IMG/VR virus record: IMGVR_UViG_3300010231_000003
Coordinates: 1 to 64,000 of that record
Origin: a virus
Length of the DNA stretch: 64,000 nt
Direction: 5' to 3' (one strand)
Shown: positions 7,413 to 53,398 of the stretch, piece by piece
Position numbering within the stretch: the stretch's first letter is position 1
Layout of the letters: each line of letters starts with the position of its first letter
Program-made: the position numbers and the translations under genes
The notes under the pieces: generated by a model
The model's input: only the letters and a program-made list of their open reading frames with translations
Database searches by the model: none
What the model was told of the DNA's origin: nothing

Positions 7413-7417
7413 GGTTC

Positions 7418-7497: not shown

Positions 7498-7501
7498 ATA
7501 A

Positions 7502-7912
7502 TCAGTTTCCCGATCTGGCGTACTGCGCACGCCTCTTTTCGGGAGTATAAATTCTTTTCTTCAAAGCTGCCTTAGCCGCTTTGCAAGGATCGCATCGGCA
7601 TCCTTTTGCGTACATGGTAGTGCTGCCACATTTAGCCGTTAGCTCAGGCTTTCGCCCTGCTGCTGTATTGCAAGCTAGATGGCTGTACGCGATATTATCG
7701 AGCGAGAAAAAGTTCTTAACCGGGTCAGAGCTATCTAGCCAAGCTTCTTTGTGCTCGATTGACAGTGTTTCCCTTGTTACTTTCTCGCCGCATCGGAAAC
7801 AGGTATCTTTTCCTGCCTTTACAACGAAGTCGAACAGCAAGTCCTTGACTAGTCTGTTACTCGCAGTGCTAGGATTCATACCTAGCTGCTCTTTCATCTT
7901 TTCGATTTTCAC
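7502..7912 (-). CDS. HNH homing endonuclease inside the tRNA array
   Basis: 136 aa with CFRCGEKV..IEHKEAW..AYSHLACN (HNH-type Cys/His motif). Inserted between tRNA-Ala and tRNA-Val. Confidence 0.75.
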   Translation of the reverse strand: MKIEKMKEQLGMNPSTASNRLVKDLLFDFVVKAGKDTCFRCGEKVTRETLSIEHKEAWLDSSDPVKNFFSLDNIAYSHLACNTAAGRKPELTAKCGSTTMYAKGCRCDPCKAAKAALKKRIYTPEKRRAQYARSGN

Positions 7913-7941
7913 GACTATCCTATGATGTCTTATGTGTAATT

Positions 7942-8015
7942 TGGTACTCCCTGTAAGAATCGAACTTACGTAATCGCCGTGTAAAGACGAAGTTCTACCA
8001 TTGAACTAAAGGAGC
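7942..8015 (-). tRNA. tRNA-Val(UAC)
   Basis: D arm GTTC AATGGTA GAAC, anticodon arm TCGTC TTTACAC GGCGA, T arm GTAAG TTCGATT CTTAC, CCA. Confidence 0.85.
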
Positions 8016-8022
8016 ATTGTTA

Positions 8023-8098
8023 TGGTATCCCGTGCGAGACTTGAACTCGGCATTTGCGGATTGAAAGTCCACCGTCCTGACCTTTAGACGAACGAGAT
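8023..8098 (-). tRNA. tRNA-Glu(UUC)
   Basis: Acceptor ATCTCGT/ACGGGAT, anticodon arm GTGGA CTTTCAA TCCGC, T loop TTCAAGT, CCA. Confidence 0.8.
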
Positions 8099-8099
8099 A

Positions 8100-8185
8100 T
8101 GGTGCGTCGGGAAGGATTCGAACCTCCACGTTCAAGACGACCACGGGGTTACAGCCCGGTGCCCTACCGAATAGGCGTCCAACGC
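8100..8185 (-). tRNA. tRNA-Tyr(GUA), long variable arm
   Basis: Acceptor GCGTTGG/CCGACGC, loop CTGTAAC, extra arm, T arm GGAGG TTCGAAT CCTTC, CCA. 86 nt. Confidence 0.85.
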
Positions 8186-8195
8186 ATTGTTTGTT

Positions 8196-8271
8196 TGGTG
8201 CAGAAGGATGGTATCGAACCATCATCTCCGATTTTTCAGACCGGCGCTAAGACCTCATCAGCTACTTCTGC
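8196..8271 (-). tRNA. tRNA-Phe(GAA)
   Basis: Perfect acceptor GCAGAAG/CTTCTGC, anticodon arm CCGGT CTGAAAA ATCGG, T arm GATGG TTCGATA CCATC, CCA. Confidence 0.85.
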
Positions 8272-8272
8272 A

Positions 8273-8346
8273 TGGTGTGACGCTGGGTTTCAATCCCGAT
8301 CCCTTAGTTTCACAGACTAAGATGCTCTCATTACACTATCGTCACC
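8273..8346 (-). tRNA. tRNA-His(GUG)
   Basis: Extra 5' G (G-1) before the acceptor, anticodon arm TTAGT CTGTGAA ACTAA, CCA. T loop ATTGAAA is atypical. Confidence 0.75.
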
Positions 8347-8352
8347 ATTGTT

Positions 8353-8430
8353 TGGTGGGAGCACTGGGACTTGAACCCAGAACCTATCGGTTAAAAGCCG
8401 AGTGCTCTAAACCAATTGAGCTATACTCCC
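8353..8430 (-). tRNA. tRNA-Lys(UUU)
   Basis: Acceptor GGGAGTA/TGCTCCC, D arm GCTC..GAGC, loop CTTTTAA, T arm CTGGG TTCAAGT CCCAG, CCA. Confidence 0.85.
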
Positions 8431-8431
8431 G

Positions 8432-8509
8432 TGGTACGCAAGGTGGGATTCGAACCCACAAGACGACAGGGTTTGAGCCTGCGGCGTATGCCGGTTCCGC
8501 CACTCACGC
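8432..8509 (-). tRNA. tRNA-Leu(CAA) with a short variable loop
   Basis: Anticodon arm GCAGG CTCAAAC CCTGT, T arm GTGGG TTCGAAT CCCAC, A73, CCA. Acceptor has three G-U pairs. Variable region is only 6 nt, which is unusual for bacterial-type Leu. Confidence 0.6.
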
Positions 8510-8614
8510 ATTGTAAATGAGGGTGCTCTGTCCACTGAGCTACCGAACGGGCTATTAACCACTACCGGGACGGATTCGAACCGTCGTCTCCCTACGCTCG
8601 TTACTACTGCTGTT
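8510..8614 (-). pseudogene. two tRNA fragments: a 3' half followed by an unrelated 5' half
   Basis: 8614-8566 carries a T arm plus acceptor strand (GACGG TTCGAAT CCGTC CCGGTAG). 8555-8512 carries an acceptor strand, a canonical D arm and the loop ATTTACA (CGTTCGG TA GCTCAGTGGACAGAGC A CCCTC ATTTACA). The acceptor strands do not pair and neither piece folds into a full cloverleaf. Confidence 0.4.
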
Positions 8615-8696
8615 TGGTAGGCAAGGAGAGATTCGAACTCTCAAAAGCCCTGCTTCTAAGGCAGGTAGGTGTACCGTTCCCATTAGCCACTCGCCC
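8615..8696 (-). tRNA. tRNA-Leu(UAG) with a short variable loop
   Basis: Perfect anticodon arm CCTGC CTTAGAA GCAGG, T arm GAGAG TTCGAAT CTCTC, A73, CCA. 22-nt D region and a 6-nt variable loop. Confidence 0.65.
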
Positions 8697-8849
8697 AAAT
8701 TCTTGCTACCATTTCTGTCAGGTTGGTAGCGACCTGTCCTTGTCGGGATTTCCCTGCCCTGCACGGGCCGAGACTGTTTGACGAGAGGCGTAGTTACACG
8801 GACTGGACACCGCCTGATAGGCTTCTCTTTCCTACGATTGTCGTCAACT

Positions 8850-8923
8850 TGGAGCGGGGTGCGAGAATCGAACTCGCCTCATTAGCTTGGAAGGCTAAGG
8901 CACAGCCACTATACCAAACCCGC
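8850..8923 (-). tRNA. tRNA-Gly(UCC)
   Basis: Anticodon arm TTAGC CTTCCAA GCTAA, T arm GCGAG TTCGATT CTCGC, acceptor GCGGGTT/ACCCCGC, CCA. Confidence 0.85.
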
Positions 8924-8930
8924 ATTGTTC

Positions 8931-9005
8931 TGGCGACTCTAGGGAGAATTGAACTCCCGTGCTCGGATCGACAATCCGGCGTAATAACCACTATACGATA
9001 GAGCC
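8931..9005 (-). tRNA. tRNA-Asp(GUC)
   Basis: Acceptor GGCTCTA/TAGAGTC, loop TTGTCGA, T arm GGGAG TTCAATT CTCCC, G73, CCA. Confidence 0.85.
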
Positions 9006-9007
9006 AT

Positions 9008-9292
9008 TTATTTAATCAGCTTCCGTACCAGACGGAAGTTGTTTGCTACCACTACGACGTACACTGCGCACAGTGCCGCGAGGATAGCAGGCAGTTGCAT
9101 CAGGAACGCATACGCCAGAGCCAGCACTACCAGCTTCGGCAGGATGAGCCCTGCTACCGTTCCTACCTTCTCGATCATAAAACGCATGACAGGGTTCGCC
9201 TCGTGTGCTACACTGGCATCTAGCAAGCGTTTCGTGGAGTACACGTCGCACATCTGGAGCACACACAGGGCTACAAACAAAATGATTGACAT
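9008..9292 (-). CDS. small multi-pass membrane protein embedded in the tRNA array
   Basis: Start at ATG 9292 (MSIILFVALCVLQMCDVYST..) after aaggagagaag. 94 aa with 3 hydrophobic segments. Confidence 0.65.
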   Translation of the reverse strand: MSIILFVALCVLQMCDVYSTKRLLDASVAHEANPVMRFMIEKVGTVAGLILPKLVVLALAYAFLMQLPAILAALCAVYVVVVANNFRLVRKLIK

Positions 9293-9309
9293 CTTCTCTC
9301 CTTTATTCT

Positions 9310-9396
9310 TGGCTGGCAAGGCTGGCTTCGAACCAGCAAGTGCATTTCTGCGCCTGATTAACAGTCAGGTAGGTCTACCAATTCCCCCACATGCCA
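9310..9396 (-). tRNA. tRNA-Asn(GUU) with a Leu-like body and long variable arm
   Basis: Perfect anticodon arm CCTGA CTGTTAA TCAGG, G73, CCA. D arm GGGGAATTGGTAGACC and a 15-nt extra arm (GCA GAAA TGC) resemble class II Leu tRNAs. 87 nt. Confidence 0.65.
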
Positions 9397-9398
9397 AT

Positions 9399-9472
9399 TG
9401 GTTGCGGATGCCAGAGTCGAACTGGACCTCCGGGTTATGAGCCCATAGTGCTTACCGTTACACCACACCGCA
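9399..9472 (-). tRNA. tRNA-Met(CAU)
   Basis: Loop CTCATAA above three G-C pairs (an initiator-like feature), T loop TTCGACT, CCA. The base of the acceptor stem is imperfect. Confidence 0.7.
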
Positions 9473-9572
9473 ATTGTACGACAGTTCTGTTTCTCGGCCG
9501 TCTTCGCCTCAGTGACTTATGATTTCGTCACGCCGCTTCTGCGATTGCTCTGCTACAGCGACAAGTACCAAC

Positions 9573-9601
9573 ATAATAACATACGTAGTGCTACTTGTCA
9601 A
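9573..9601 (-). promoter_or_regulatory. sigma70-type promoter inside the tRNA array
   Basis: Minus strand reads TTGACA-agtagcactacgtatgt(17)-TATTAT, between tRNA-Pro and tRNA-Met. Confidence 0.65.
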
Positions 9602-9625
9602 GCTTTGCGCTTACGCGCTGAATTC

Positions 9626-9701
9626 TGGTCTGGGTGGGTGGGATCGAACCACCGGCCTCAAGCTTCCAAAGCTCGCCGTCTACCGCTGACATTACACCCA
9701 G
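9626..9701 (-). tRNA. tRNA-Pro(UGG)
   Basis: Perfect acceptor CTGGGTG/CACCCAG (C1-G72), anticodon arm CGAGC TTTGGAA GCTTG, T arm GGTGG TTCGATC CCACC, CCA. Confidence 0.85.
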
Positions 9702-9702
9702 A

Positions 9703-9778
9703 TGGTGCCCCCGGCAGGAATCGAACCCGCGACCTTCGGATTACAAATCCGCTGCTCTACCTGCTGAGCTACAAGGGC
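9703..9778 (-). tRNA. tRNA-Thr(UGU)
   Basis: D arm GCTC AGCAGGTA GAGC, loop TTTGTAA, T arm GCGGG TTCGATT CCTGC, CCA. Confidence 0.85.
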
Positions 9779-40550: not shown

Positions 40551-40870
40551 CTACGTTTAAAGTTGGCGACAAAATTCGTTGCATCGACGGAAAAGGCGCA
40601 GCAAAAGGTATCAAGGAAGGCGAGACTTACGAGGTTGAACGCGACGACGCGAGCGGCCTGCAAATTGTTGGCGTTTACTCGGCTGGCGGGCACTGGCGCC
40701 CGCGTTTCGAACTCGCGAAGCCTGAAGTGAAGGTAACGGTTCGAACCAAGGAACAGGTATGGGCCGACCGTACGAAGGAACTGCTGGATGGCATTGTAGC
40801 CACGCACACAGCGGGCCAAGAGATTCCGCGTGAGTGGATCGAAGAACTGTACTTCAGCAGCGCACGGTAA
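40547..40870 (+). CDS. hypothetical protein
   Basis: 107 aa, RBS acaaggagaagaa. Confidence 0.65.
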   Translation: MTTFKVGDKIRCIDGKGAAKGIKEGETYEVERDDASGLQIVGVYSAGGHWRPRFELAKPEVKVTVRTKEQVWADRTKELLDGIVATHTAGQEIPREWIEELYFSSAR

Positions 40871-40876
40871 CAACAA

Positions 40877-40905
40877 GCCGCCCTCCGGGGCGGTTTTTCT
40901 TTTTG
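40877..40905 (+). terminator. rho-independent terminator
   Basis: GCCGCCC-tccg-GGGCGGT followed by TTTTTCTTTTT. Confidence 0.75.
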
Positions 40906-40913
40906 TGAAGGGG

Positions 40914-40942
40914 TTGCATTCGTAGTGCTACCTACGTATAAT
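40914..40942 (+). promoter_or_regulatory. sigma70-type promoter
   Basis: TTGCAT-tcgtagtgctacctacg(17)-TATAAT. Confidence 0.65.
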
Positions 40943-40967
40943 GGCTGAATTCAACAACGGAGTGCAT

Positions 40968-41495
40968 ATGAAACCCCTTAAAGCTAGAGTTAGTAAATGT
41001 TCATACGGGTCGTACACGGCCAGCCTCAGTAACAGGCCAGTAGCGACGTACCACGACGAGTCAGACGCGGCGGACTGGCTCCAATACATGCTATCTAACG
41101 GATGTGTCATTTCACAACACTCGTGTGTGAAACCTTCTGGTGCTATGCCAACAGGTTACAAAGCAGAACGCTGCGAGAGAGATTTGAAGATCGGAACGGA
41201 GTGGAAGGCTAACCATCCAGCTAGGGGTATCACTCCTGAACAATACCGGGAGAATTGTCAAATTTCACGTATCAGAGCCAGAGTCGAGGCCGAAGACAAG
41301 CAAGCCGGCGAGCAACGACTGAAAGATGCTGGTTGGAATGACACAGTAGAAATGCTCAGGGTTCTGCTCGGGTACAACGACGAAACAAACCCATACTCAA
41401 TGGATAAATTCAACGAAGACCTAGCCAAGTTGCGGGCGAAACGGAATCAGATCGCAGCGGGAACAGCTTGCGTAGGTAGCGCTTCTTCCATATAA
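40968..41495 (+). CDS. hypothetical protein
   Basis: Start at ATG 40968 (MKPLKARVSK..). 175 aa, visibly AT-richer than its neighbours. Confidence 0.6.
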   Translation: MKPLKARVSKCSYGSYTASLSNRPVATYHDESDAADWLQYMLSNGCVISQHSCVKPSGAMPTGYKAERCERDLKIGTEWKANHPARGITPEQYRENCQISRIRARVEAEDKQAGEQRLKDAGWNDTVEMLRVLLGYNDETNPYSMDKFNEDLAKLRAKRNQIAAGTACVGSASSI

Positions 41496-41496
41496 T
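41468..41496 (+). promoter_or_regulatory. sigma70-type promoter inside the 3' end of the preceding gene
   Basis: TTGCGT-aggtagcgcttcttcca(17)-TATAAT, then leader cactaaccaaccaacggagaacaa. Confidence 0.6.
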
Positions 41497-41525
41497 ACTC
41501 TCACTAACCAACCAACGGAGAACAA

Positions 41526-43190
41526 ATGAAACCTACCGAACAACAACTGAACTGCATCGCTGCTGCAATCAAGCACATGATCGTGAAGATCGAGGCAGGC
41601 GCAGGCAGTGGTAAGACCAGTACGCTCAAGCTCGTGTCCGAAGAGCTGGACCAATCGTCCCTATACATCGCCTTCAACAAGGTGACTGCTACGGAAGCAT
41701 CCGAGAAGTTCCCGAGCCACGTGACGTGCAAGACCACTCACAGTCTCGCATTCGCCAAGTTCGGCCGTGCGCTGATGGACAAGCTGAACCGTCCGAAGGG
41801 TGGCTACGTCAACGTCGCCTTCACTGGCACGGAAATCGCCCGCTTCTACAAGATCGGCTGCATCATGGACATGCAACTGGGAACGCTCGCTACCACTGAA
41901 AACGCTATCGGCCTGTTCGTGCGTCAAACTGTGGAACGCTTCGAGCAATCCGCAGACACGGAAATCACGGAAAACCATCTGCCGCGATTCGACATGAAGA
42001 AGACGCTGGATGCCGATCCCTCGTCCGGAGCCTACGTCCTTCGTCTCGCAAAGCGTCTGTGGCAGGATCGTATCGATCCGGGTAGCCCTGTGCTGGCAAC
42101 GCACGATACGTACCTGAAGCAGTTCCAGCTCAGCAAACCGCGTCTGCCGTACAACATCATCTATCTGGACGAAGCGCAGGATAGCACGCCTTGCGTACTG
42201 GACATCGTGATGACGCAAGCGCAGAAGGGTGCGAAGATCATCCTCGTGGGCGACCGCCGACAGGCAATCTACGGATGGCGTGGTGCGATCAACGCCATGA
42301 CCCGTATCGAAGGCCACAGCGAGTTCCTGACGAAGAGCTTCCGCTTCGGCCAAGGCGTGGCTGACGTTGCTACCGCTGTCCTGCAAGGTCTGATGAAGCT
42401 GACGGGCCGGGATGACATGCCCTCGACTATCGGCCGTGGCGTGGTGGATCGTACGAAGCCTTACATGTACCTGTTCCGTACGAACTCGGGTCTGCTGTAC
42501 GCTGCTGTGGCTGCAATTTCGAAGGGCGAGAACATCCGTCTCGAAATCGACGTGAAAGACTTCCTCCGCCTGCTGGAGTCGGCGTACGCGCTGTCTAAGG
42601 GCGACATGCGGAACGTCAAGCACGAGAACATCCTTCCGTACCCGACGTGGCAAGAGTACAAGGAAGAGGCGGAGAAGATGACTGGCGAGATGAAGCGCAT
42701 CGTCAACATCATCGAAGGCGGTGACTACTTCCGCTTCGTACGTACGTTGGAAGGGTTCCATAACCCGGCTAACGCTCCAATCGTGTACACTACGGCCCAC
42801 AAGTCGAAGGGTCGTGAGCACGATCAGGTGTTGCTGGCGGATGATTTCCCAAGCCACTACGACGGCGGTGATTGGGTAGGACTGAACGAGATGGAACAGA
42901 ACCTTCTGTACGTCGCTGTTACCCGTGCAATGCGTGTGCTGGAAATCAACGATTCGGTGCAGGAAGCGCTGGACTACTACGCAGACGGTCCTGAGCATCT
43001 GGACTCCGGCGAGCTGGAGTACCACAAGATCGCAGCAGCGTACGACAACGGCGACCTCGATCACGAAGATGACCGTGCTGCGTACGAGCACTACGTTGTC
43101 AACGGGGACAAGCCAAGGCTCATGCCTAGCCCTGATTTGCGGAGGGAGCTTCGGGACATGCAACGTGACTACGATTGGCAAGGGCTGTAA
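41526..43190 (+). CDS. UvrD/Rep-like superfamily 1 DNA helicase
   Basis: Walker A EAGAGSGKTST, YLDEAQD, GDRRQAIYGWRGA, TAHKSKGREHD motifs. 554 aa. Confidence 0.85.
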   Translation: MKPTEQQLNCIAAAIKHMIVKIEAGAGSGKTSTLKLVSEELDQSSLYIAFNKVTATEASEKFPSHVTCKTTHSLAFAKFGRALMDKLNRPKGGYVNVAFTGTEIARFYKIGCIMDMQLGTLATTENAIGLFVRQTVERFEQSADTEITENHLPRFDMKKTLDADPSSGAYVLRLAKRLWQDRIDPGSPVLATHDTYLKQFQLSKPRLPYNIIYLDEAQDSTPCVLDIVMTQAQKGAKIILVGDRRQAIYGWRGAINAMTRIEGHSEFLTKSFRFGQGVADVATAVLQGLMKLTGRDDMPSTIGRGVVDRTKPYMYLFRTNSGLLYAAVAAISKGENIRLEIDVKDFLRLLESAYALSKGDMRNVKHENILPYPTWQEYKEEAEKMTGEMKRIVNIIEGGDYFRFVRTLEGFHNPANAPIVYTTAHKSKGREHDQVLLADDFPSHYDGGDWVGLNEMEQNLLYVAVTRAMRVLEINDSVQEALDYYADGPEHLDSGELEYHKIAAAYDNGDLDHEDDRAAYEHYVVNGDKPRLMPSPDLRRELRDMQRDYDWQGL

Positions 43191-43282
43191 TGTGCAGACC
43201 CACGAAGAGTGGGTTTCTGCGAGGGTTGCAGAGGGTTATACCGATGCAGAGATAGAAACACTACCATTTTAAGGAGAGAAAT

Positions 43283-43477
43283 ATGGCAACGAAGTACATG
43301 ATGGTTCGTAAGACGAAGAGCGGTAAATGGCGTCCGTGCTGGCTTGACGACGACTCCGGCAGGAACGTCGAAGGTGGGGCCACTACGGACAAATTCAACG
43401 CCGAACGCCAGCGGAGGGCGATGGCAAAAACATACCCGCAGCACACGTACGCACTGCTTGAACTGCCGGAGGACTAA
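43283..43477 (+). CDS. hypothetical small protein
   Basis: 64 aa, RBS taaggagagaaat. Confidence 0.6.
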   Translation: MATKYMMVRKTKSGKWRPCWLDDDSGRNVEGGATTDKFNAERQRRAMAKTYPQHTYALLELPED

Positions 43478-43480
43478 GCT

Positions 43481-45997
43481 ATGGGATTGCGTGTAATCTG
43501 GGACACGGAGGCTAAAAACCTCCTGAACTCGGAGTCGATTGACTACACGGCCTCCCCGTACTGCCTGAAAGACCCGGAGTTTATGCACTGCGCCGGGTTC
43601 GTTGATGCCGACTCAGAAGACGAGTGGTTCTTCGGACCCGAAGACGTACGCAAGGGCAAACACATCGAGTTCATCATGAACGAAGTGGACGAACTGATCG
43701 GTCACAATACGATCAGCTACGACCATTTGCTCTTGAAGCTCTATGACGGGTTGAACTACTCCATCGGCTGTAAGGCTCTGGGAATCCCTGATACGGTTAC
43801 GTACAAAGGTAAGACCAAGGCTGTCAAGATTACCGATACGCTCGTGATGTCGAAGACGCTCAACCCTGACCGTCCTCAACACAGCATCGAGTACTTCGGT
43901 AGCGTGCTGGGGCTGGAGAAGATCAACTGGCGTGCGAAGGCTGTAGAGCTGGGCCTGATCGAAGCGAACGCTCCGAAAGGGCAGGAATTCCGCGTGTACC
44001 ACGAAGAGATGGGTGTGTACATGATGCGAGACTGCCACGTCAACAAGCGGGTGTATCGCTGGCTGATGCGGGAATGGGGCGACTGGGACTGGGATGATGC
44101 GTACGAGCTGGAGAAATCCGTAGCGGAAATCATCACTCGACAGGAGCACCGTGGCTTCAAGTTCAACAAGTTCAAGGCTATCGAGAACGTTCGATTCCTC
44201 GACGCGAAGATGGAAGAGCTACGGGCAACCGTGGAGCCGCTCATCCCTCCGAAACCGTTGACGAAGGGTAAGCTGGCGGATGTCACGCCGACGAAGAAGC
44301 AGTTCAAGAACAACGGGGAGCCCGTCAGCCACATGTTCAACTTCGCCAAGCGTCACGGCGGATCGTTGTACGAGGAATCGGGCGACTGGTATCTGGAAGT
44401 GTTCGGTAAGAAGCACAAGCTACCTATCCCGAACGAACCGTTGTTCACGACTGAACCGGCAAGGCTGGACGATACGTTGCACATCAAGCAATGGCTCGTG
44501 GAGCTGGGCTGGAACCCTACGCAGTATAAGGAACGTGACCTAACGGTAGACAGCAAGAAGAAGAAGATCACGAAGGAAAAGTTCGTGGAGGCTGTGACGA
44601 AGTGGGTTGACCAGACCTTTGATAGCCCGTTCAAAGCGGACAGGCTGGAAGAGCTGGAATACTCGCCGCGTGTGAGCAAAGAGTTCGTGCTGAAGAAGCT
44701 GTTGGCCCACGACCATATCAAGCGTCCGCTGAAGGTTTATACGAACCCTACGCTGACTATCGGTATGGAGAAGGAGATTGACCCGGAGCTGCTGAAGCTG
44801 TCGGAGAAGTTCGCGTATGCCAAGGAGATTTCGCACTACCTGACGTACAAGCATCGACGTAACAGTATCTTGGGTGGAGGTATCGACCCGGACGACGACG
44901 AAGACATGCAGAAGGGTTGGATGTCCGTTGACCGTCTCGACGTTGACGGCCGTATCCCAACGCCTGCTGACACGTGCGGAGCCGCTACGAGCCGTTTTAA
45001 ACACCGTCTGGTGTGTAACGTGCCGCGTGTGTCTTCGATGTACGGCTACGAGATGCGGGAGTTGTTCGGAACGGACGAATTCTTCTACCAGATGGGCTAC
45101 GACTTCGACTCTCTTGAAGCGAAGGTGGAAGCACACTATACTTACCGTTATCCGGGCGGTCCCGAGTACGGCGTGTCGCTGACGGCTGAGAAGCCGAACG
45201 ACTGTCACTCTGTTCTCGCTGCCAAGATCACGGACATTCTGGGACGTAAGTTCCCTCGTTCGACTGCAAAGAGCGTGAAGTACGGTTGCTCGTACAATGC
45301 GCAGATTCCACGTATCGCTAAGACCGTGGGCTGCTCGATTGAAGAAGCTACCATCATCTTCAACACGTTCTGGGAGCAAGCGTTCCCGCTGAAGCAGTTG
45401 AAAGAGGCAATGCAAGCGTACTGGGAGTCCACAGGCGGGAAGAAATTCCTGCTGGGTATTGACGGACGTAAGCTTCCTATCCGTGCTAAGGGCAACGTGA
45501 TTAACACTGCGTTCCAAAGCTGCGGCGTTATCTGCGCAAAGAGGGCGATGGTGCTGCACGACCGTTACCTGAAGGCTGAAGGGCTGTCCGTGGACTTCTT
45601 CGTGGACGACTGGAAGGCCAAGCTGGAAGAGAAGGATCAGTTCGCACAACAACTCATCGCTTACCACGACGAGGCACAGTGCGAGGTAACGAAGTCGAGC
45701 GTGACGTTCAAGCTGTTCAAGTTCGAAGGTCCAATGGAAGTAGAAAACGAGAAGGGCGAGATGGAACTGTCCGAATCCGCAGCAGCCGCTAAGAAGGCTT
45801 GTAAGGCTTTTAAAGAGGCGCAGACGGACAAGGTATGGTCTGATATCGGCCACACCGATAAATGCTTCTACGTGGCCTATAATCGAGCCGGAGAGCTTGC
45901 TACGAAGGCCGTTACGGACGCAGGTAAGTACTACAAGCTGAAAGCGGAGCTGACGGCTGGCTACATGATTGGAACTAATTGGGCCACGACTCACTGA
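43481..45997 (+). CDS. family A DNA polymerase with an N-terminal 3'-5' exonuclease
   Basis: Exo I VIWDTEA, motif A DFDSLEA, motif B RSTAKSVKYGCSYNA, motif C AYHDEAQ. 838 aa. Confidence 0.9.
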   Translation: MGLRVIWDTEAKNLLNSESIDYTASPYCLKDPEFMHCAGFVDADSEDEWFFGPEDVRKGKHIEFIMNEVDELIGHNTISYDHLLLKLYDGLNYSIGCKALGIPDTVTYKGKTKAVKITDTLVMSKTLNPDRPQHSIEYFGSVLGLEKINWRAKAVELGLIEANAPKGQEFRVYHEEMGVYMMRDCHVNKRVYRWLMREWGDWDWDDAYELEKSVAEIITRQEHRGFKFNKFKAIENVRFLDAKMEELRATVEPLIPPKPLTKGKLADVTPTKKQFKNNGEPVSHMFNFAKRHGGSLYEESGDWYLEVFGKKHKLPIPNEPLFTTEPARLDDTLHIKQWLVELGWNPTQYKERDLTVDSKKKKITKEKFVEAVTKWVDQTFDSPFKADRLEELEYSPRVSKEFVLKKLLAHDHIKRPLKVYTNPTLTIGMEKEIDPELLKLSEKFAYAKEISHYLTYKHRRNSILGGGIDPDDDEDMQKGWMSVDRLDVDGRIPTPADTCGAATSRFKHRLVCNVPRVSSMYGYEMRELFGTDEFFYQMGYDFDSLEAKVEAHYTYRYPGGPEYGVSLTAEKPNDCHSVLAAKITDILGRKFPRSTAKSVKYGCSYNAQIPRIAKTVGCSIEEATIIFNTFWEQAFPLKQLKEAMQAYWESTGGKKFLLGIDGRKLPIRAKGNVINTAFQSCGVICAKRAMVLHDRYLKAEGLSVDFFVDDWKAKLEEKDQFAQQLIAYHDEAQCEVTKSSVTFKLFKFEGPMEVENEKGEMELSESAAAAKKACKAFKEAQTDKVWSDIGHTDKCFYVAYNRAGELATKAVTDAGKYYKLKAELTAGYMIGTNWATTH

Positions 45998-47373: not shown

Positions 47374-48351
47374 ATGAAGAAATTTTTCGCTGGTATCATT
47401 CTGTCACTGGCAACCGTTGCAGCTCTGGCAATGCCCCGTCCATCGGACATCGAGAACGCTCTGGCAGCTCGCGACTACCAATCGGCCAAGTCGATGACGC
47501 AAGAAGTGCTGCGTGAGCGTCCGGACAGTGCGAAAGCACACCTGTTCAACGCCTACGTGCTGCTGAAAGCAGATAACGACCGTCAAGGTGCGGCTGCTGA
47601 ACTGAAGACGGCACGGATGCTCGACAAGAACCACAGCGTCCAGAACTCGGCCCTGTTCGGCCGGATGACGGCGGAGCTGGAGCGTACTCCGAACCCGGTC
47701 CAACGGATGGCTCCTTCCCAACGGCGATACGAACCTGCCCCGGTGGCAACGTACACCGAAGTGAAACCGGCTGGTGGTAGTGGTATCATGACCGTGCTGA
47801 AGTGGTTGTTCTGGGCGACCATCATCGGCCTGATCGTGTACTTCATCTACAAAGTGTGGCAGAATAGTCGTCAGGTAGTGGTGCATAACTCGGTGGAATC
47901 GTGGGCACGCACGCCAGTAGAACCGCTCCGTACGGAACGCCTGTACACGAACCAAGGCCGTACTTACGACGCTCCGCCGCATCCTGTGTACCCTTCGGCC
48001 CCGGTGGCTGTTCAACCGGCAGTGGTCCAGCCGAGCACGGTGGTGGTGCATGACAACGGAGCGAACAACCTGATGACGGGTATGATGCTGAACGAAATGA
48101 TGCACAGCCATCACCATCATCACGATTCGTACGGTCATGGCCATGATCGAATCATCGAACGTCAAACGTACGTGGAAGCAGCACCGGCCTACCAGCCTTC
48201 GTACCCTAGCGATACGACCGACTACGAAACGAAACGTTCCTCGTACTCGTCCGGGAGTGATGATAGCTGGTTCAGCTCGTCGTCCAGTTCGTCCTCGTCT
48301 TCCAGCAGCGACTGGAGTTCGTCGGACAGCGGTGGCGGTTCGTGGGATTAA
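47374..48351 (+). CDS. secreted/membrane protein with a TPR-like N-domain, one TM helix, a His-rich patch and a poly-Ser tail
   Basis: Signal peptide, TM WLFWATIIGLIVYFIY, then MHSHHHHHDSYGHGHD and SSSSSSSSSSSDWSSSDSGGGSWD. Confidence 0.7.
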   Translation: MKKFFAGIILSLATVAALAMPRPSDIENALAARDYQSAKSMTQEVLRERPDSAKAHLFNAYVLLKADNDRQGAAAELKTARMLDKNHSVQNSALFGRMTAELERTPNPVQRMAPSQRRYEPAPVATYTEVKPAGGSGIMTVLKWLFWATIIGLIVYFIYKVWQNSRQVVVHNSVESWARTPVEPLRTERLYTNQGRTYDAPPHPVYPSAPVAVQPAVVQPSTVVVHDNGANNLMTGMMLNEMMHSHHHHHDSYGHGHDRIIERQTYVEAAPAYQPSYPSDTTDYETKRSSYSSGSDDSWFSSSSSSSSSSSSDWSSSDSGGGSWD

Positions 48352-48715: not shown

Positions 48716-49162
48716 ATGACCCGTAACTTCATCGTAGGCCAACTCGCTGCAACCCGCTTCGCTGAAACCGCTGCACGTATGCAAGCTGGCGAAGAACTCG
48801 ACCTCGACAAAGTCGTCAGCCAGATCGGCCGTATTACTTCCATCGACGGTACGAACGTCACGATCAAGAGCGCTGACGGCACTGTGGGAACGCATGACGC
48901 TTCGGCACTGGTGGATGTCGTCCACTTCGATATCACCCAACCGATGAGCGGTTCCGTCGGTGGTAGCGGTTCGGTGTTCGCAATCGATCATCCGCTGCTT
49001 CCGGCAAATCAGTTCGTGACGACCTCGGAAATCAAGTACATCATGGCTGACGGCAAGTTCGAAACCCGCAACACGCTGTACATCCCGAACCTGTACGACA
49101 TCTTCGGCCTCGGTATCAAGGAATTCATGGCGGAATCGCCGTACCTGACCGGCGAAGCATAA
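48716..49162 (+). CDS. hypothetical protein
   Basis: 148 aa, RBS aaaaggagaaacaaa. Confidence 0.65.
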   Translation: MTRNFIVGQLAATRFAETAARMQAGEELDLDKVVSQIGRITSIDGTNVTIKSADGTVGTHDASALVDVVHFDITQPMSGSVGGSGSVFAIDHPLLPANQFVTTSEIKYIMADGKFETRNTLYIPNLYDIFGLGIKEFMAESPYLTGEA

Positions 49163-49165
49163 AAC

Positions 49166-49194
49166 TTGACAAGTAGTACTACGTAATGTATGAT
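49166..49194 (+). promoter_or_regulatory. sigma70-type promoter
   Basis: TTGACA-agtagtactacgtaatg(17)-TATGAT. Confidence 0.7.
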
Positions 49195-49254
49195 AGCGGT
49201 TCTGGAGCAGACAATGCTCCGGCCGCAACCAACCAAATCTTAGGAGAGAAAATT

Positions 49255-49866
49255 ATGGAAATGTCCCTGCACCGCGTTATCGCTGAAATCAAAGCGACCG
49301 AACAAAAACTGAATCAGATTCAAAACGGCCACTTCGTCTTCACCGTCCCGGCTGACTCCGATGCCGATACGCTGGAAGCGAAACGCCTGTCCCAGTCGAA
49401 CTTCGACGGCATCCAAACGCTGCTGAAGAAGCTGGCGATCCTGAAGGCAGAACGCAACAAAGCGAACGCTACCACGAAAGTGAAGATCGCTGGCGTCGAG
49501 ATGACGATTGACGAAGCGCTGGCACGTAAGGCTGCTAACGTCTACCGTCTGACCTTCCTGAACACCCTGCGTGCTCAGATGAACACCGGCAAGGCCCGTG
49601 TCGATCAGGTCCAAGCGCAGATCGAAGCGAAGATTGCTCAGCAAGTTGCTGCTGCATCCGGTGGTACGAAGAAGGCCAGCGAAGAGGAAATCAAGGTCTT
49701 CCGCCAACTGGCAGAGCGTAACACGAAGATCGCTGTCGTCACGTTCGACGGCCTGAAGGACCAGATCGATGCAATCGCAAAAGAGCTGGAACAGTTCGCT
49801 ACCGAAGTGGATTACGTCCTGTTGGAAGCAAACGCTGTAACGAAGGTGGAAGTGAACCTTTCGTAA
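49255..49866 (+). CDS. hypothetical coiled-coil protein
   Basis: Start at ATG 49255 (MEMSLHRVIAEIK..) after taggagagaaaatt. 203 aa. Confidence 0.65.
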   Translation: MEMSLHRVIAEIKATEQKLNQIQNGHFVFTVPADSDADTLEAKRLSQSNFDGIQTLLKKLAILKAERNKANATTKVKIAGVEMTIDEALARKAANVYRLTFLNTLRAQMNTGKARVDQVQAQIEAKIAQQVAAASGGTKKASEEEIKVFRQLAERNTKIAVVTFDGLKDQIDAIAKELEQFATEVDYVLLEANAVTKVEVNLS

Positions 49867-49884
49867 TCAGCATGGGGCTTGTCC

Positions 49885-50255
49885 CCATTTAGTAGCAGAT
49901 GTACGTAGCAAAACAAGAATCTATCCCGTCATGTGGCCCTAGGACGGAAACTATGGGCCAGCCAACTATGCTAATGGATATAGCTATCAAAAGTTTGCTC
50001 GCGGTCGCCGGAGTGTGACGTGCCAGCCTAATGTTGAAGCTGAAAGTTTGACTCTAAAAGCTGAAAGGTTATGCTAACGACTGTGGGCCTGTGTTGTCGC
50101 ACGGTTAGCATCAAAGTTCAAGACGTAAAAGATTGAGCCCTCTACTATGGGCTTGGAGCTAAATGCTTGTTCAATCTTCCACAAAAGTTTTGATAGCCAA
50201 GGATGGAGCTTTATGTTTGATAGGAAGGTGCTACGTAGCGTCTGCTACTAAATGG
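49885..50255 (+). ncRNA. candidate large structured RNA (alternatively a MITE-like inverted-repeat element)
   Basis: A perfect 15-bp inverted repeat (49885-49899 / 50241-50255), extended by 49903-49910 / 50229-50236, closes about 340 nt. A nested 10-bp helix (49983-49992 / 50188-50197) and a local hairpin (50071-50078 / 50104-50111) lie inside. There is no ORF with an RBS. Strand is assumed from context. Confidence 0.4.
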
Positions 50256-50273
50256 CGATAACGTCATTACTTC

Positions 50274-50349
50274 GGGTCGTTAGCTCAGCGGATAGAGCAC
50301 GGGATTTCTACTCCCGGTGTCGTAGGTTTGAATCCTACACGACCTACCA
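50274..50349 (+). tRNA. tRNA-Arg(UCU)
   Basis: GGGTCGT TA GCTC AGCGGATA GAGC A CGGGA TTTCTAC TCCCG GTGTC GTAGG TTTGAAT CCTAC ACGACCT A CCA. Confidence 0.9.
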
Positions 50350-50375
50350 ACCAACCGTAACAAAAGGAGAGAACA

Positions 50376-50534
50376 ATGCAACGCAAAGAATTCATGTCTG
50401 CCGCTCAGACCCGTGCCATCGGCAACGCCCCGCGTACCCACGAGAACTGCATCCGCCTGTTGAAAGCTGCTGGCCTGCATCCGGTGGCTCGTCCGGGCAA
50501 GACGGCGAAAGACGCGGCTCGTAAGGCACGCTAA
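50376..50534 (+). CDS. hypothetical small basic protein (52 aa)
   Basis: Not in the ORF track. MQRKEFMSAAQTRAIGNAPRTHENCIRLLKAAGLHP.. after leader ctaccaaccaaccgtaacaaaaggagagaaca. Confidence 0.5.
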   Translation: MQRKEFMSAAQTRAIGNAPRTHENCIRLLKAAGLHPVARPGKTAKDAARKAR

Positions 50535-50535
50535 C

Positions 50536-50736
50536 ATGCTGAAGGTCGGGGACTGGAGTAATCCAGCTTGGGTCGAGAAATATAGCTGGGGATGCACGAG
50601 CGACAACCACGTGTGGGAGTGCTGCGAAACTGGTCTGTACCACTTCAGCGATGAAGCCAGCCAGATCGACATCTACGGCTACAAGACACAAGCAGAATGT
50701 AAATCAGCGCTAGACGCCTACACGGCTGTGCTGTAA
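50536..50736 (+). CDS. hypothetical small protein
   Basis: 66 aa, starts 1 nt after the upstream stop. Confidence 0.55.
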   Translation: MLKVGDWSNPAWVEKYSWGCTSDNHVWECCETGLYHFSDEASQIDIYGYKTQAECKSALDAYTAVL

Positions 50737-50842
50737 AGTTTCGAGAGACGAAGAGCCGTAAGTGTCTATAAAGAAAATGGCTATTGCGTAAGACCGAAAG
50801 GCTACGGGGCAACAAAGGTTGCTATTATTAAGGAGCATTACA

Positions 50843-51805
50843 ATGGCTGGTCTGAAACCAAAATCGAGCGGTAAAGGTGGTAACGGTGGTAACTACGAAC
50901 AACGGAACTTCCCGGTTCCGAAAGCTGGTGCCCGTCGTGCCCGTGTATCGCTGATCGTTGACCTCGGCACTCAGGAACGTGAGCCAAGCTACATCGGCCC
51001 GGACGGCAAGCTGTGCAAGCCGGATGCGGAAGGTGCAGTTCGTAAGGACAACAAGCCCGCACATCAGATCGCGATGTTCGCTGACCTCGTGAACGACGTG
51101 GTGGACTACGGTGGTGAAATCGGCAAGGCTCAATACCGCCTGCTGCTGAACAAGAGCTTCAAGGGCGATATCCAAGGTATCAACTTCTACCACTGCCCGC
51201 CTATCGACAACAAAGGCAACATCATCGAAGGCAAGAAGTGGTCGTACCATGCGCAATCCATGCTGACGAAGCTGGGCGACGCAATCGGTATCGAGAACTT
51301 CGGTGTGCAGGACGAGAACGACGACGTGGAACTGCTGCTGAACGGCCAGTTCATCGCTGAAGTGGATGTGAAGGAAACCAACTCCGGTAAGCAGGACAAG
51401 GACGGCAACGACATCATCTACAAGAACGTCAACTTCAAGAAGCCTGCCAAGGTTCCGCCTGAGATTAAGGAAGACGCAGACGGTAACGAAATCGAAGTGG
51501 TGCCTACCTTCGCCAAGCTGCAACAGCCTGCGATGATTATCGGCTTCGACAACGTGAACGAAGACAACGTGAAGTTCCTGCGTGCTGATATCCGCAAGAA
51601 AATCAAGCTGTCGGCCGAGTATGACACGCCTGAAGGCGCTCAGATGAAGGCAGCAATCGAAGCGTACGAAGCCAAGCTGGGCATCAAGGACGACGGCGAT
51701 ACCAAAGCCGACAAACCGGCTGCGAAGCCGAAGGCAGCTCCGGCAAAACCGAAGAAGCCTGTCGCTCCTGCCGATCAGGACATGGACGACGACATTCCTT
51801 TCTAA
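50843..51805 (+). CDS. ssb: single-stranded DNA-binding protein (long form) with a host-type acidic tip
   Basis: Start at ATG 50843 after taaggagcattaca. The C-terminus PADQDMDDDIPF equals the E. coli SSB tip motif DDDIPF, preceded by a Lys/Pro/Ala linker. Confidence 0.6.
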   Translation: MAGLKPKSSGKGGNGGNYEQRNFPVPKAGARRARVSLIVDLGTQEREPSYIGPDGKLCKPDAEGAVRKDNKPAHQIAMFADLVNDVVDYGGEIGKAQYRLLLNKSFKGDIQGINFYHCPPIDNKGNIIEGKKWSYHAQSMLTKLGDAIGIENFGVQDENDDVELLLNGQFIAEVDVKETNSGKQDKDGNDIIYKNVNFKKPAKVPPEIKEDADGNEIEVVPTFAKLQQPAMIIGFDNVNEDNVKFLRADIRKKIKLSAEYDTPEGAQMKAAIEAYEAKLGIKDDGDTKADKPAAKPKAAPAKPKKPVAPADQDMDDDIPF

Positions 51806-51873: not shown

Positions 51874-52857
51874 ATGACAGAACTACCAAAATTGGTGTGC
51901 ATCGACGGTGATATTCTGTCCTATCGTGCTGCTGCGGCGAATGAGAAACGCTTCGTACGCTGCACTCACATGGAGACAGCGGAAACGGTGGAGTTCGACA
52001 CGCTGACCAAGTTCCGTGAATGGGCAGGGGACAGCAAGGATGAGTACGAGGTTGTACCGGGGCAGAAGTCCGGCCCGTTGCAGAACGCGTTCCACATCCT
52101 GAACCACATGATCGACAACATCGTGAAGGCGTGCAAGGCAGAGAGCTACCACATCGTTGTGAGCGGGGACAACAACTTCCGCCTCGACCTTCCGTTGCCG
52201 ACACGCTACAAGGACGCCCGTAAGGAAAGCACGAAACCGTTGCAATTGGCCGACTGCAAGAACTACCTCATCAACTCGCACTCAGCGGAAATCAGCGATG
52301 GCGTGGAAGCGGACGATGTACTCGTTGCTTACATGACTGCTGGACACACGCAAGCGTCGATTGATAAGGACGCCAACCACGGACCGGGGCACTTGTACAA
52401 CTGGGACAACATGACGGAGCCTGAGTTCATCAGTGGCTTCGGAGAGCTGACCCTGATCGTCAAGGAGAACCCGAACGGGACCAAGACGAAGAGCGCCAAG
52501 GGTAAGGGACGTGTGTGGTTGTACTACCAGATGGTCTTCGGGGACGCTGTGGACTGCTACAAGCCCTGTGAGCTTGCGAAAGTGAAGTTCGGAGAGGTAG
52601 GAGCGTACGAACTGCTACATCGCTGCAAGACGGATAAAGAGGCTCTGGAGGCTGTTGCCAAGCAGTATCAGATTTGGTATCCTAAACCGATTACCTACCG
52701 TGCGTGGGATGGATCGCTACAGGAGAACAAATCGTGGCTGGACATCTGGCAACTCTATGCGGACTGTGCGTTCATGCGCCGCTGGGAAGGTGACAGGTTT
52801 GACGTACGGAAGGTACTGAAGAAGGCGGGGATCGAGTATGGCGACACGGAAGAGTAA
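51874..52857 (+). CDS. 5'-3' exonuclease (T7 gp6-like, PIN/FEN fold)
   Basis: CIDGDIL, VEADDVL and SIDKD acidic motifs spaced as in the T7 gene 6 exonuclease. 327 aa. Confidence 0.55.
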   Translation: MTELPKLVCIDGDILSYRAAAANEKRFVRCTHMETAETVEFDTLTKFREWAGDSKDEYEVVPGQKSGPLQNAFHILNHMIDNIVKACKAESYHIVVSGDNNFRLDLPLPTRYKDARKESTKPLQLADCKNYLINSHSAEISDGVEADDVLVAYMTAGHTQASIDKDANHGPGHLYNWDNMTEPEFISGFGELTLIVKENPNGTKTKSAKGKGRVWLYYQMVFGDAVDCYKPCELAKVKFGEVGAYELLHRCKTDKEALEAVAKQYQIWYPKPITYRAWDGSLQENKSWLDIWQLYADCAFMRRWEGDRFDVRKVLKKAGIEYGDTEE

Positions 52858-53398
52858 GGAGTCCCCGAAGACCCGTTGTAGCGGGACGATGACGGAGGCT
52901 CAGTACCTAGCGTGGATTCGTTCTGCGCTTCGTTCCAAGTGGCTTCGTTGGCAACCCCGGAATGACTGCCTTGCCGCAGCTCGCCGCCCTTACAAGGGGC
53001 CGAAGAAGCAGCAGAAGTGGGAATACCAGTGTGCCATTTGTAAGGAGTGGTTCATACTGAAAGTGATGGAGGTTGACCACTACCCGCACGATGCTGGAGC
53101 GATCCTGACCGTAGAAGACATCGGCCCGTTCGTTGGACGACTCTACTGCGAGACGGACAACCTGCGTGCGTTGTGCAAACCGTGCCACAGCATCTACACG
53201 TACTCCCAGAGCGAGGGAATTTCGTTCGAAGAGGCAAGGTTCGCTAAGAAGGTATTGGAGATTACGAGACAGCCGGTGAAACAGGTACTTGCGTTCCTAA
53301 TGCAGTACGGATATACTGGTAGCTCGGTAAGTAACGATACCAAGCGGAAGGAGCTAGTCACCAAAATTTTGAAGGAGCAACATGAGCAACACGATTGA
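52838..53398 (+). CDS. HNH/NinG-like nuclease domain protein
   Basis: CAICK..EVDHYPH..NLRALCKPCH motif. 186 aa. Confidence 0.5.
   Translation: MATRKSKESPKTRCSGTMTEAQYLAWIRSALRSKWLRWQPRNDCLAAARRPYKGPKKQQKWEYQCAICKEWFILKVMEVDHYPHDAGAILTVEDIGPFVGRLYCETDNLRALCKPCHSIYTYSQSEGISFEEARFAKKVLEITRQPVKQVLAFLMQYGYTGSSVSNDTKRKELVTKILKEQHEQHD

Follow-up and report, generated by a model that had tools for sequence, protein, structure and literature searches.

A structured element downstream of a PHROG 1491 gene

The 64,000 nucleotides (nt) analysed here, positions 1-64,000 of IMG/VR record IMGVR_UViG_3300010231_000003 (the window), come from a phage whose kinship to sequenced isolates is distant, the top match being that of its single-stranded DNA-binding protein (SSB), with 48% amino acid (aa) identity to that of the Pseudomonas phages Boevelstad and vB_PseuGesM_254. 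Among its replication genes, with a DNA polymerase upstream and the SSB and an exonuclease downstream, lies a gene for a 203-aa all-helical protein of family PHROG 1491, homologous to gene T5.085 of phage T5, and directly after it an element that we followed up in the + strand. This element is very probably a conserved, pseudoknotted RNA of about 380 nt and a member of a family that we term T5.085-associated.

A preliminary description of the locus had reported an element free of open reading frames (ORFs), closed by a perfect 15-base pair (bp) inverted repeat and lying 18 nt ahead of the only plus-strand tRNA, tRNA-Arg(UCU), and all of this was borne out. Even when 2 mismatches are tolerated, the 64 kb contain CCATTTAGTAGCAGA just once (49885-49899) and its exact reverse complement just once (50241-50255), where the chance expectation is 0.05 and none of 100 shuffles gave two matches; the repeat reaches 21 nt at 90% (49879-99 / 50241-61), and the pairing described beyond a small internal loop does go on inward between TACGTAGCA and TGCTACGTA (49902-10 / 50229-37). 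No stop-free stretch within the element exceeds 44 aa on the + strand or 56 aa on the - strand. The predicted folding energy of the + strand is -138.9 kcal/mol and that of shuffled sequences -102.2 +/- 4.9 (z = -7.54, no shuffle of 100 folding as well), and the - strand fold is weaker (z = -6.45). The features of the element, all on the + strand, are as follows; the statistics come from the alignment of relatives described below, in which both-sided changes are substitutions affecting both partners of a pair.

49255-49866: gene for the 203-aa all-helical protein, PHROG 1491 (phrog_1491, E = 3e-35)
49879-50261: the RNA element in full, bounded by the first and last bases that pair in the closing helix; the hidden Markov model (HMM) of 15 homologues aligns 49878-50263 (alignment A3)
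49879-49909: closing helix P1a, 5' strand; partner 50230-50261; 31 pairs, 23 with both-sided changes, 96.1% of cells paired
50230-50261: closing helix P1a, 3' strand; same pairing score as the 5' strand
49911-49926: helix P1b, 5' strand, AAACAAGAAUCUAUCC; partner 50201-50218; 15 pairs, 6 with both-sided changes, 98.7% paired
49926-49960: H-type pseudoknot; S1 CCGUC (49926-30) with GACGG (49943-47), S2 UGGCCC (49934-39) with GGGCCA (49955-60); loop 3 begins AAA
49970-49984: hairpin Px, GCUA, loop AUGGAUA, UAGC; the stem covaries (GAAA/UUUC, CUUA/UAAG, GAUA/UAUC)
49998-50028: hairpin Pz, variable stem, loop GGAGU(G) or GUAGUU; relatives' stems differ with complementarity kept
50033-50070: first tract of AAAG-type repeats (GAAAGUUUG, UAAAAGCUG, GAAAGGUUA); a like tract occurs in every isolate's RNA
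50071-50111: central hairpin H, AUGCUAAC ... GUUAGCAU; stem 50071-78 / 50104-11; at least 6 different complementary stems in relatives
50112-50136: second AAAG-type repeat tract, CAAAGUUCAAGACGUAAAAGAUUGA, as read from the sequence
50135-40 / 50149-54: small hairpin GAGCCC/GGGCUU; covaries (GAGGCC/GGCCUU, AAAGCC/GGCUUU, CUCCC/GGGAG)
50156-68: small hairpin GAGC-UAAAU-GCUU; 1 pair with both-sided changes
50174-50180: helix c, 5' strand, AUCUUCC; partner 50223-50229; crosses P1b; 7 pairs, 99% paired, 3 with both-sided changes
50201-50218: helix P1b, 3' strand, GGAUGGAGCUUUAUGUUU, within the near-invariant 3' block
50223-50229: helix c, 3' strand, GGAAGGU; found family-wide in the same sequence context and spacing

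Two further proposals of the preliminary description survived in part. The nested helix gctatcaaaa/ttttgatagc (49983/50188) is present in this sequence and is not conserved, the region of its 5' arm being replaced by different hairpins in relatives and its 3' arm being invariant for other reasons. As for the recurring motifs, the recurrence of AAAGTTTG is a genuine family trait, reflecting a run of about 7 AAAG-type units; CTATGGGC also recurs, one copy being the pseudoknot's 3' strand and the second lying within an unrelated hairpin, and its recurrence, like the nested helix, is probably fortuitous.

Covariation among relatives of the window phage

Relatives of the locus were collected by searching IMG/VR and a large protein collection with the upstream 203-aa protein and then retrieving the encoding contigs. 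This gave 14 further distinct loci, all from uncultivated phages, in which the identity of the neighbouring protein ranges from 92% down to 45% and the element stands at the same place in 14/14. An HMM built from the 15 sequences found exactly one copy per locus and no other match in the window.

RNAalifold and a separate scan of column pairs concur on P1a, P1b and helix c, P1a and P1b together forming an end-to-end helix of about 47 bp. When the structure was scored on alignment A3 (60 pairs, 15 sequences), 97.1% of cells were paired, against 86.8% in shuffles and 38-46% when partners were slid by 1-3 columns. The compensatory changes that the preliminary description had proposed to look for were found in 33 of the 60 pairs, against 13.7 +/- 2.1 in shuffles (0/500 reach 33) and 4-7 with slid partners; because the 15 sequences are akin the shuffle statistics overstate independence, a problem from which the slid-partner control is free.

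Within the pseudoknot, S2 is formed by the loop of S1 and the sequence directly downstream. S1 is invariant and loop 3 always begins AAA. The Watson-Crick pairing of S2 is perfect over 6-8 bp in 15/15 sequences, and its stem takes 8 different forms, among them UGGCCC/GGGCCA, UAGCCC/GGGCUA, GCCGUG/CACGGC, GGCUAG/CUAGCC, GGCAGG/CCUGCC and GCCGAU/AUCGGC. In Px, whose AUGGA-type loop is conserved, as in Pz, in H (the local hairpin noted at the outset) and in GAGCCC/GGGCUU, the stems change while pairing is retained. In the window clade the segment enclosed by helix c pairs with the 5' strand (P1b, 6 compensated pairs), which makes a second pseudoknot and accounts for the near-invariant 100-nt block at the 3' end. 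A helix AAUCU (49918-22) / AGAUU (50130-34), the analogue of T5 GCAUCUU/AAGAUGC, was tried and fitted the clade more poorly than P1b. An alternative pairing of AAGAUUGA (50129-36) with UCAAUCUU (50171-78) is also possible.

Across P1 and c the alignment holds 96 G-U pairs and 8 A-C juxtapositions, and the fold is therefore assigned to the + strand, the sense of all flanking genes. Together, covariation, this strand asymmetry and two pseudoknots strongly support the large structured RNA that the preliminary description had favoured.

The RNA family in cultured phages

Given that nucleotide searches gave no link to any isolate, the link to cultured phages came by way of the neighbouring protein. 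A blastn search of 50,697 phage records with the elements of the window and of two relatives (L019 and L020; L numbers are our locus designations) returned tRNA similarity alone or nothing. Exact-pattern scans with the invariant 3' block returned, from viral contigs, five related contigs and chance matches in coding DNA (L011, L012); from metagenomes, one contig already known; and from a genome collection, four chance matches in a terminator hairpin and coding DNA (L015-L018).

By tblastn the PHROG 1491 protein is found in 669 phage records, from T5-like Demerecviridae (Escherichia, Salmonella, Vibrio), Vequintavirinae, Pseudomonas Otagovirus and relatives, Ralstonia and Erwinia jumbo phages, Bacillus Bastillevirinae and Bacillus phage G. 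We picked 16 isolates across the score ranking of this search, and individual features of the RNA were checked in some or all of them. All 16 have a gap immediately past the PHROG 1491 gene; its length is mostly about 360-560 nt, reaching 1,064 nt in Av-05, and it is ORF-free or holds just one short, dubious ORF. The gaps, on the strand of that gene, are:

SYP: L031 3109-3511
Milchi: L033 3109-3495
UNO-G1W1: L032 3115-3470
Boevelstad: L034 2112-2631
DT571/2: L035 2127-2570
pVp-1: L036 2124-2492
phiPsa374: L037 2112-2516
T5: NC_005859 43142-43504, - strand
Deep Blue: L039 1818-2376
RsoM2USA: L040 1836-2416
Deimos-Minion: L041 from 1845
KpS8: L042 1680-2082
SPLA5a: L043 1680-2073
Bacillus G: L044 1881-2402
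Av-05: L045 1674-2738
Y1-MI: L046 1809-2202

The gaps that were read share one plan. A long closing helix begins 10-25 nt past the stop codon and appears in the minimum-free-energy folds of T5, DT571/2, SYP, Milchi, UNO-G1W1, phiPsa374 and KpS8. At positions 53-61 an H-type pseudoknot follows in eight gaps read (seen in T5, DT571/2, pVp-1, phiPsa374, UNO-G1W1, Milchi and Deimos-Minion), then an (A)CCA linker and a hairpin with a UGG-type loop, and then 7-10 AAAG/AAAC units at about 10-nt spacing around a central hairpin. The loop corresponding to Px retains UGG family-wide, with UUGGA in T5, UGGAA in Milchi, UGGUA in phiPsa374 and AAUGGA in RsoM2USA at the same place. Differences in the pseudoknot between phiPsa374 and UNO-G1W1 are compensatory. 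Our in-house pseudoknot score did not separate real sequences (9-14) from shuffles (mean 10.4, maximum 14), so that beyond the window clade the claim of a pseudoknot is based on its position and context and on pairwise compensation.

Helix c, of at least 5 bp, is present in 15/16 isolates in the context AA(A)NC-c5' ... c3'-GCU(G/A), just ahead of the 3' strand of the closing helix; it was read by eye in pVp-1, and our script found none in SPLA5a. Its strands are spaced by 51-59 nt in 12 isolates and by 73 in SYP, 68 in Deimos-Minion and 76 in Y1-MI, compared with 57 in the window (UCUUCC/GGAAGG). There are 10 different stem sequences, those of the isolates including CCUAGA/UCUAGG, CUUGGG/CCCGAG, CUUAGG/CCUGAG, CUUGG/CCAAG, CCUUG/CAAGG, CCACUG/UAGUGG, CCUGG(A)/(U)CCAGG, CCAAG/CUUGG and CCUUGG/UCAAGG. 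T5-type members have a local hairpin enclosed by helix c, where the window clade has the P1b pairing, and their minimum-free-energy fold is fully nested; the fold of the T5 gap RNA has z = -6.4.

Profile searches connect the two sets in both directions. The HMM of the window clade matches the gaps of UNO-G1W1 (E = 6e-4) and SYP (E = 3e-3), and an HMM of 11 isolate RNAs has as its sole match in the window 49937-50150 on the + strand (E = 1.3e-5 in 161 kb) and also matches six other clade members within the element. On phages held out of its construction the latter model scored Y1-MI (5e-26), SPLA5a (6e-26) and Av-05 (5e-9), all within their gaps; the RNA of Bacillus phage G is out of HMM reach.

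The T5 RefSeq record annotates eight other stable RNAs and no feature in 43142-43504, and a literature search found no paper describing the RNA. A fragment of it may be among the 8,495 candidate structured RNAs that a catalogue drawn from IMG/VR lists (PMC10690425). Two small RNAs of about 100 nt from phage PAK_P3 (PMC4933390) have no obvious correspondence to the element.

Several records annotate short ORFs as hypothetical proteins inside or antisense to the RNA: UNO-G1W1 CDS0071 (L032 3198-3386), Boevelstad CDS0058 (L034 2390-2551), RsoM2USA_148 (L040 2142-2438) and Milchi CDS0127 (L033 3309-3416). These are probably annotation artefacts. In the Erwinia jumbo phage Deimos-Minion (L041 ~1945-2010) the pseudoknot and the AAAG tract are separated by a stretch that contains the tRNA-like fragments GGTTCGATTCC and GTAGCTCAGTCGGTTAGAGC and in which ARAGORN calls no tRNA.

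Known RNA classes, mobile elements and small ORFs

The RNA family is absent from Rfam 15 and from the genome records inspected, and no curated family holds the element. The covariance-model search that the preliminary description had called for, a cmscan of 49000-51200 against Rfam 15 with permissive filters (E <= 10), returned the tRNA and four chance matches below 21 bits and nothing else; there was likewise nothing for the T5 or Deep Blue gaps (E <= 10) or for L031-L033 (E <= 1). The element is a member of none of the classes ROOL, GOLLD, HEARO, group I introns, tmRNA and RNase P RNA, and ARAGORN called no tmRNA. A likeness by eye to the R/S elements of group I introns and to the CR-I block of RNase P RNA had no model score behind it in either case. 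A retron msr-msd was considered and set aside, no reverse-transcriptase domain being found in the ten proteins flanking the element, which were compared with Pfam and PHROGs, as was a type III toxin-antitoxin RNA, there being no 34-36-nt tandem repeats and the linked protein being upstream and all-helical.

The preliminary description had offered, as an alternative to an RNA, a miniature inverted-repeat mobile element (MITE) that landed next to the tRNA. This is excluded by a single copy per locus that is orthologous in every relative and always beside the same gene; the search of the window for extra copies found none, there are no empty sites among the relatives, and the flanks (...GGGGCTTGT / CCCCATTT and AAATGGCG / ATAACGTC) show no direct repeat that would mark a target-site duplication. 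The terminal 'inverted repeat' itself changes by compensatory substitution, as an RNA helix does. Comparison also failed to reveal a conserved small ORF: the ATG of a 32-aa ORF at 50163 is missing in 11/15 sequences, and the most conserved block carries 1-nt indels. A small-ORF reading of the translated similarity was rejected, that similarity appearing in five frames at once and being broken by the same kind of indel.

The partner gene and the flanks

The RNA is genetically coupled to the PHROG 1491 gene: it lies directly 3' of that gene and on the same strand in the window, the 14 relatives and the 16 isolates, a small ORF intervening in 4 relatives. The preliminary description had emphasised the tRNA as neighbour, and a conserved neighbour does exist; it is the upstream protein gene, the tRNA being adjacent in 6/15 loci and so not a constant partner. 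In the window the stop codon occupies 49864-66 and the RNA runs from 49879, about 12 nt on, which leaves no room for a promoter of its own.

The label 'tail fiber protein' that databases give to PHROG 1491 looks like a mis-annotation. An AlphaFold2 model of the 203-aa protein is a helical bundle (predicted local distance difference test score 90.4), for which structural matches were uninformative, the top Protein Data Bank (PDB) entry being 3kdq, of function not known (E = 0.011), and the matches among viral structures all being uncharacterised. Sequence matches in the PDB to designer PPR proteins were discarded as a repeat artefact of residues 142-173, no stretch of which passes alone. A literature search found no paper naming T5.085 or T5p083 in its main text. 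Translational knock-down of T5.085 in T5 by CRISPRi-ART brought no loss of fitness in laboratory E. coli (PMC11879866, supplementary file 16), which fits an accessory role.

Between the PHROG 1491 gene and the RNA, 4/15 relatives have an additional ORF of about 46-52 aa (consensus ..RL.V.GGWL.R..) (L003 ~4610-4750; L019 3618-3776; L021 3624-3764; L030 3621-3767); it is not in the window. The remaining features of the flanks, again on the + strand, are:

49166-49194: strong sigma-70-type promoter TTGACA-17-TATGAT, 11/12 consensus matches, ahead of the 49255 gene
50190-50217: promoter-like TTGATA-16-TATGTT, inside the most conserved block of the RNA
50274-50349: tRNA-Arg(UCU), 18 nt past the terminal repeat, the sole + strand tRNA of 21
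50376-50534: basic 52-aa ORF (MQRKEFMSAAQ..PRTHENC.RLL..ARPGKTAKD), the next protein gene after the RNA in most close relatives
50536-50736: Cys/Trp-rich 66-aa ORF, with a homologue in L019

The last two ORFs are conserved, and neither of their products matches any family. The hexamers TTGATA and TATGTT are kept in the most distant clade members and not in T5-type RNAs, and 50190-50217 may be a promoter that overlaps the RNA and serves the tRNA and small ORF downstream. ARAGORN finds 21 tRNAs in the window, the other 20 being clustered on the - strand at 6789-9778.

Within the clade a tRNA directly follows the RNA in 6/15 loci (tRNA-Arg(UCU), or another tRNA in L025) and lies past one small ORF in 2, and in the remaining members a tRNA is absent from the 3' flank. 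What follows the RNA in the window clade, at 12-25 nt, is a tRNA or the conserved basic ORF of about 50 aa, and no terminator; intrinsic terminators do follow the RNA in Milchi, phiPsa374, Boevelstad and pVp-1. Over all loci, same-strand tRNAs occur within 1.5 kb in about half. The module lies inside a tRNA cluster or adjoins one in the window, most clade members, SYP, Milchi, pVp-1, Deep Blue (where it sits between tRNAs and portal gene fragments), KpS8 and SPLA5a, and RNA ligase or tRNA-repair-type genes neighbour it in Boevelstad, Milchi, pVp-1 and T5.

Further genes of the region were noted in passing. The product of 47374-48351 in the window is a secreted or membrane protein that combines a TPR repeat with a His-rich stretch and a poly-Ser tail and is weakly DUF2076-like in relatives; its gene lies within a segment of about 4.8 kb between DNA polymerase and SSB that Boevelstad-like phages do not have. 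An HNH endonuclease gene (52838-53398) stands between the exonuclease and an SbcD-like phosphoesterase, as it does in Boevelstad and vB_PseuGesM_254, and further HNH genes adjoin the RNA in relatives L028 and L030.

Interpretation of the element

It seemed reasonable to us to propose that the element acts as a stable RNA in a ribonucleoprotein with the protein encoded beside it, a reading towards which we incline by a little. The RNA would be co-transcribed with the 49255 gene from the promoter at 49166 and might be released as a stable species of about 380 nt by RNase III acting on the long closing helix, with RNase P, in cutting the 5' end of the adjacent tRNA, trimming its 3' tail; in Milchi, phiPsa374, Boevelstad and pVp-1 an intrinsic terminator would take the place of this trimming. 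It may then join the T5.085-like protein in a ribonucleoprotein of accessory, tRNA- or translation-related role, a guess prompted by the many among these tRNA-rich phages that have the module inside a tRNA gene cluster or next to one. The AAAG repeats could be repeated protein-binding sites, an array organising copies of the protein, and the UGG loop might contact the 3' CCA end of a tRNA. A tRNA-directed function is a suggestion we make tentatively and hold to be less likely than not, and its specific form, in which the T5.085-family protein and the RNA act directly on tRNAs to process, repair, sense or protect them, is more doubtful.

Several points weigh against this proposal. That the RNA is transcribed, processed and stable in this manner is in every part inferred, and binding of the protein to the RNA is putative, the modelled fold being an uninformative helical bundle. 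The absence of a defect on knock-down means that the module is dispensable in laboratory T5. About half of the loci have no tRNA inside 1.5-3 kb. The kinship of the 15 sequences inflates the shuffle comparison, as said above, and part of the model of the 3' domain is unsettled, helix c overlapping the alternative helix AAGAUUGA/UCAAUCUU. Finally, with no terminator in the window clade, transcription probably runs into the downstream genes, so that a role in cis is possible.

Such a role would make the element a structured 3' untranslated or intercistronic region that stabilises or autoregulates the upstream mRNA, for instance through binding of the protein to its own 3' untranslated region, or serves as an RNase III processing hub or insulator within the polycistronic transcript, with no separate stable RNA. 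The start of the RNA about 12 nt past the stop codon with no promoter of its own, its invariable position directly after the same gene on the same strand, a long irregular closing duplex that resembles an RNase III substrate, and the missing terminator all suit this view; but an RNA of some 380 nt in which two pseudoknots are combined with invariant loops and tracts of repeats, kept from Bacillus to E. coli phages, goes far beyond known 3' stabilisers or RNase III sites, and an extra small ORF parts the gene from the RNA in 4/15 relatives, and we consider a role solely in cis unlikely. The dispensability of the module in a laboratory host, which is typical of counter-defence genes, its linkage with clusters of tRNAs (and, in certain phages, with genes for RNA ligase and tRNA repair), and the roughly 7-10 AAAG-type units at about 10-nt spacing in every member would suit an anti-host decoy or sponge, whose AAAG/AAAC units or tRNA-like UGG/CCA features titrate a host endoribonuclease, a tRNA-targeting defence nuclease or an RNA-binding regulator. 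No target is known, however, the repeats are not the tandem 30-40 nt units of type III antitoxins, and one architecture shared by phages of Firmicutes and Proteobacteria points to a universal or phage-encoded partner rather than a host-specific defence, which leaves the sponge an improbable explanation.

A catalytic RNA, be it a self-processing ribozyme or a phage-encoded one that resembles RNase P RNA, processes tRNAs and has the T5.085-like protein for a cofactor, is suggested by the size, the 5'/3' closing helix, the long-range helices and pseudoknots, a conserved UGG loop able to pair with CCA, and the occurrence in tRNA-rich phages, often within tRNA clusters. We think it very unlikely, as no RNase P, group I, group II or small-ribozyme model matched at E <= 10 (window, T5 gap and Deep Blue gap), the universally conserved sequence blocks of RNase P were not recognised, and T5.085 is dispensable in T5. 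A role at the level of DNA or as a gene, whether as MITE, as replication origin or single-strand initiation site, as promoter region for the tRNA (50190-50217) or as a small protein gene, is scarcely tenable. Replication genes do lie on both sides in the window, the most conserved block does contain a promoter-like match and ORFs of 32-39 aa exist; yet the 96 G-U pairs against 8 A-C juxtapositions and the compensated pseudoknots indicate a single-stranded molecule of the + strand, the element is single-copy with no empty sites, neither start codon nor reading frame is conserved, the promoter-like hexamers are not kept in T5-type members, and in other phages the module is outside the replication region (in Deep Blue, between tRNAs and portal fragments).

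Relation to known systems and significance

The T5.085-associated RNA resembles GOLLD and ROOL in being a large, intricate, phage-borne non-coding RNA with pseudoknots, often beside tRNA genes and of function not known. It differs in having no Rfam sequence or structure match, in its length (about 340-400 nt, against about 580 and 800 nt) and in its strict coupling to one protein gene directly upstream, of which we know no description for GOLLD or ROOL; its range takes in Demerecviridae, Vequintavirinae, Otagovirus, Herelleviridae and jumbo phages. The non-coding RNAs of T5 (rnaI, rnaIII, rnaIV, rna1-3, rna2H, rnaX) and species 1 and 2 of T4 are likewise of function not known and come from a tRNA-rich early region, but the T5 stable RNAs are annotated at 30.2-34.0 kb and 40.8-41.6 kb, are mostly about 70-170 nt and tRNA-like, and have no match to the family HMM. 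One of them, rnaX, is a 719-nt annotated stable RNA (T5 40848-41566; L038 10849-11567; - strand) that lies directly upstream of the T5 tRNA-Arg(UCU), the tRNA species that follows the element in the window; it contains tRNA-like segments and is without a family HMM match.

With bacterial RNase P RNA the element has in common a length of about 350-400 nt, pairing of its 5' and 3' ends, long-range helices, a conserved loop containing GG and potentially able to pair with CCA, a small dedicated protein gene and a link to tRNA; it differs in that c crosses P1b, in its 5' H-type pseudoknot, and in the lack of a model match and of recognised conserved blocks. The leader of T4 gene 32 mRNA, whose pseudoknot and UUAAA repeats are bound cooperatively by SSB, similarly presents an H-type pseudoknot followed by repeated A-rich units, and the copy in the window is upstream of an SSB gene. 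Here, in contrast, there is a 47-bp closing helix, about 580 nt and three genes intervene before the SSB start codon, the RNA follows a gene instead of leading one, and other phages have no SSB gene anywhere near it. Many copies of a short motif in one RNA also recall the CsrB/RsmZ sponges and ToxI, the last of which shares linkage to a protein gene, but the motif is AAAG/AAAC and not GGA, tandem 34-36-nt repeats are missing, and the order is protein then RNA. The all-helical bundle of the T5.085-family protein has no known resemblance to the ToxN endoribonuclease.

If this reading is correct, a large pseudoknotted RNA has gone unannotated in the classical model phage T5 and in many phages under development for therapy (T5-like, rV5-like, Otagovirus and Bastille-like), and short ORFs annotated within it in several GenBank records are now suspect. 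The RNA provides a lead on an orphan gene that 669 phage genomes carry under the mistaken label 'tail fiber protein', and one that is testable in T5 and E. coli. What large ornate RNAs do in bacteria and phages is a question to which it contributes a further case, one with an evident protein partner, which to our knowledge GOLLD and ROOL do not have. Were the complex to prove a ribonucleoprotein acting on tRNA, it would be an RNA-protein machine not known before, distributed from Bacillus to E. coli phages, T5 included.

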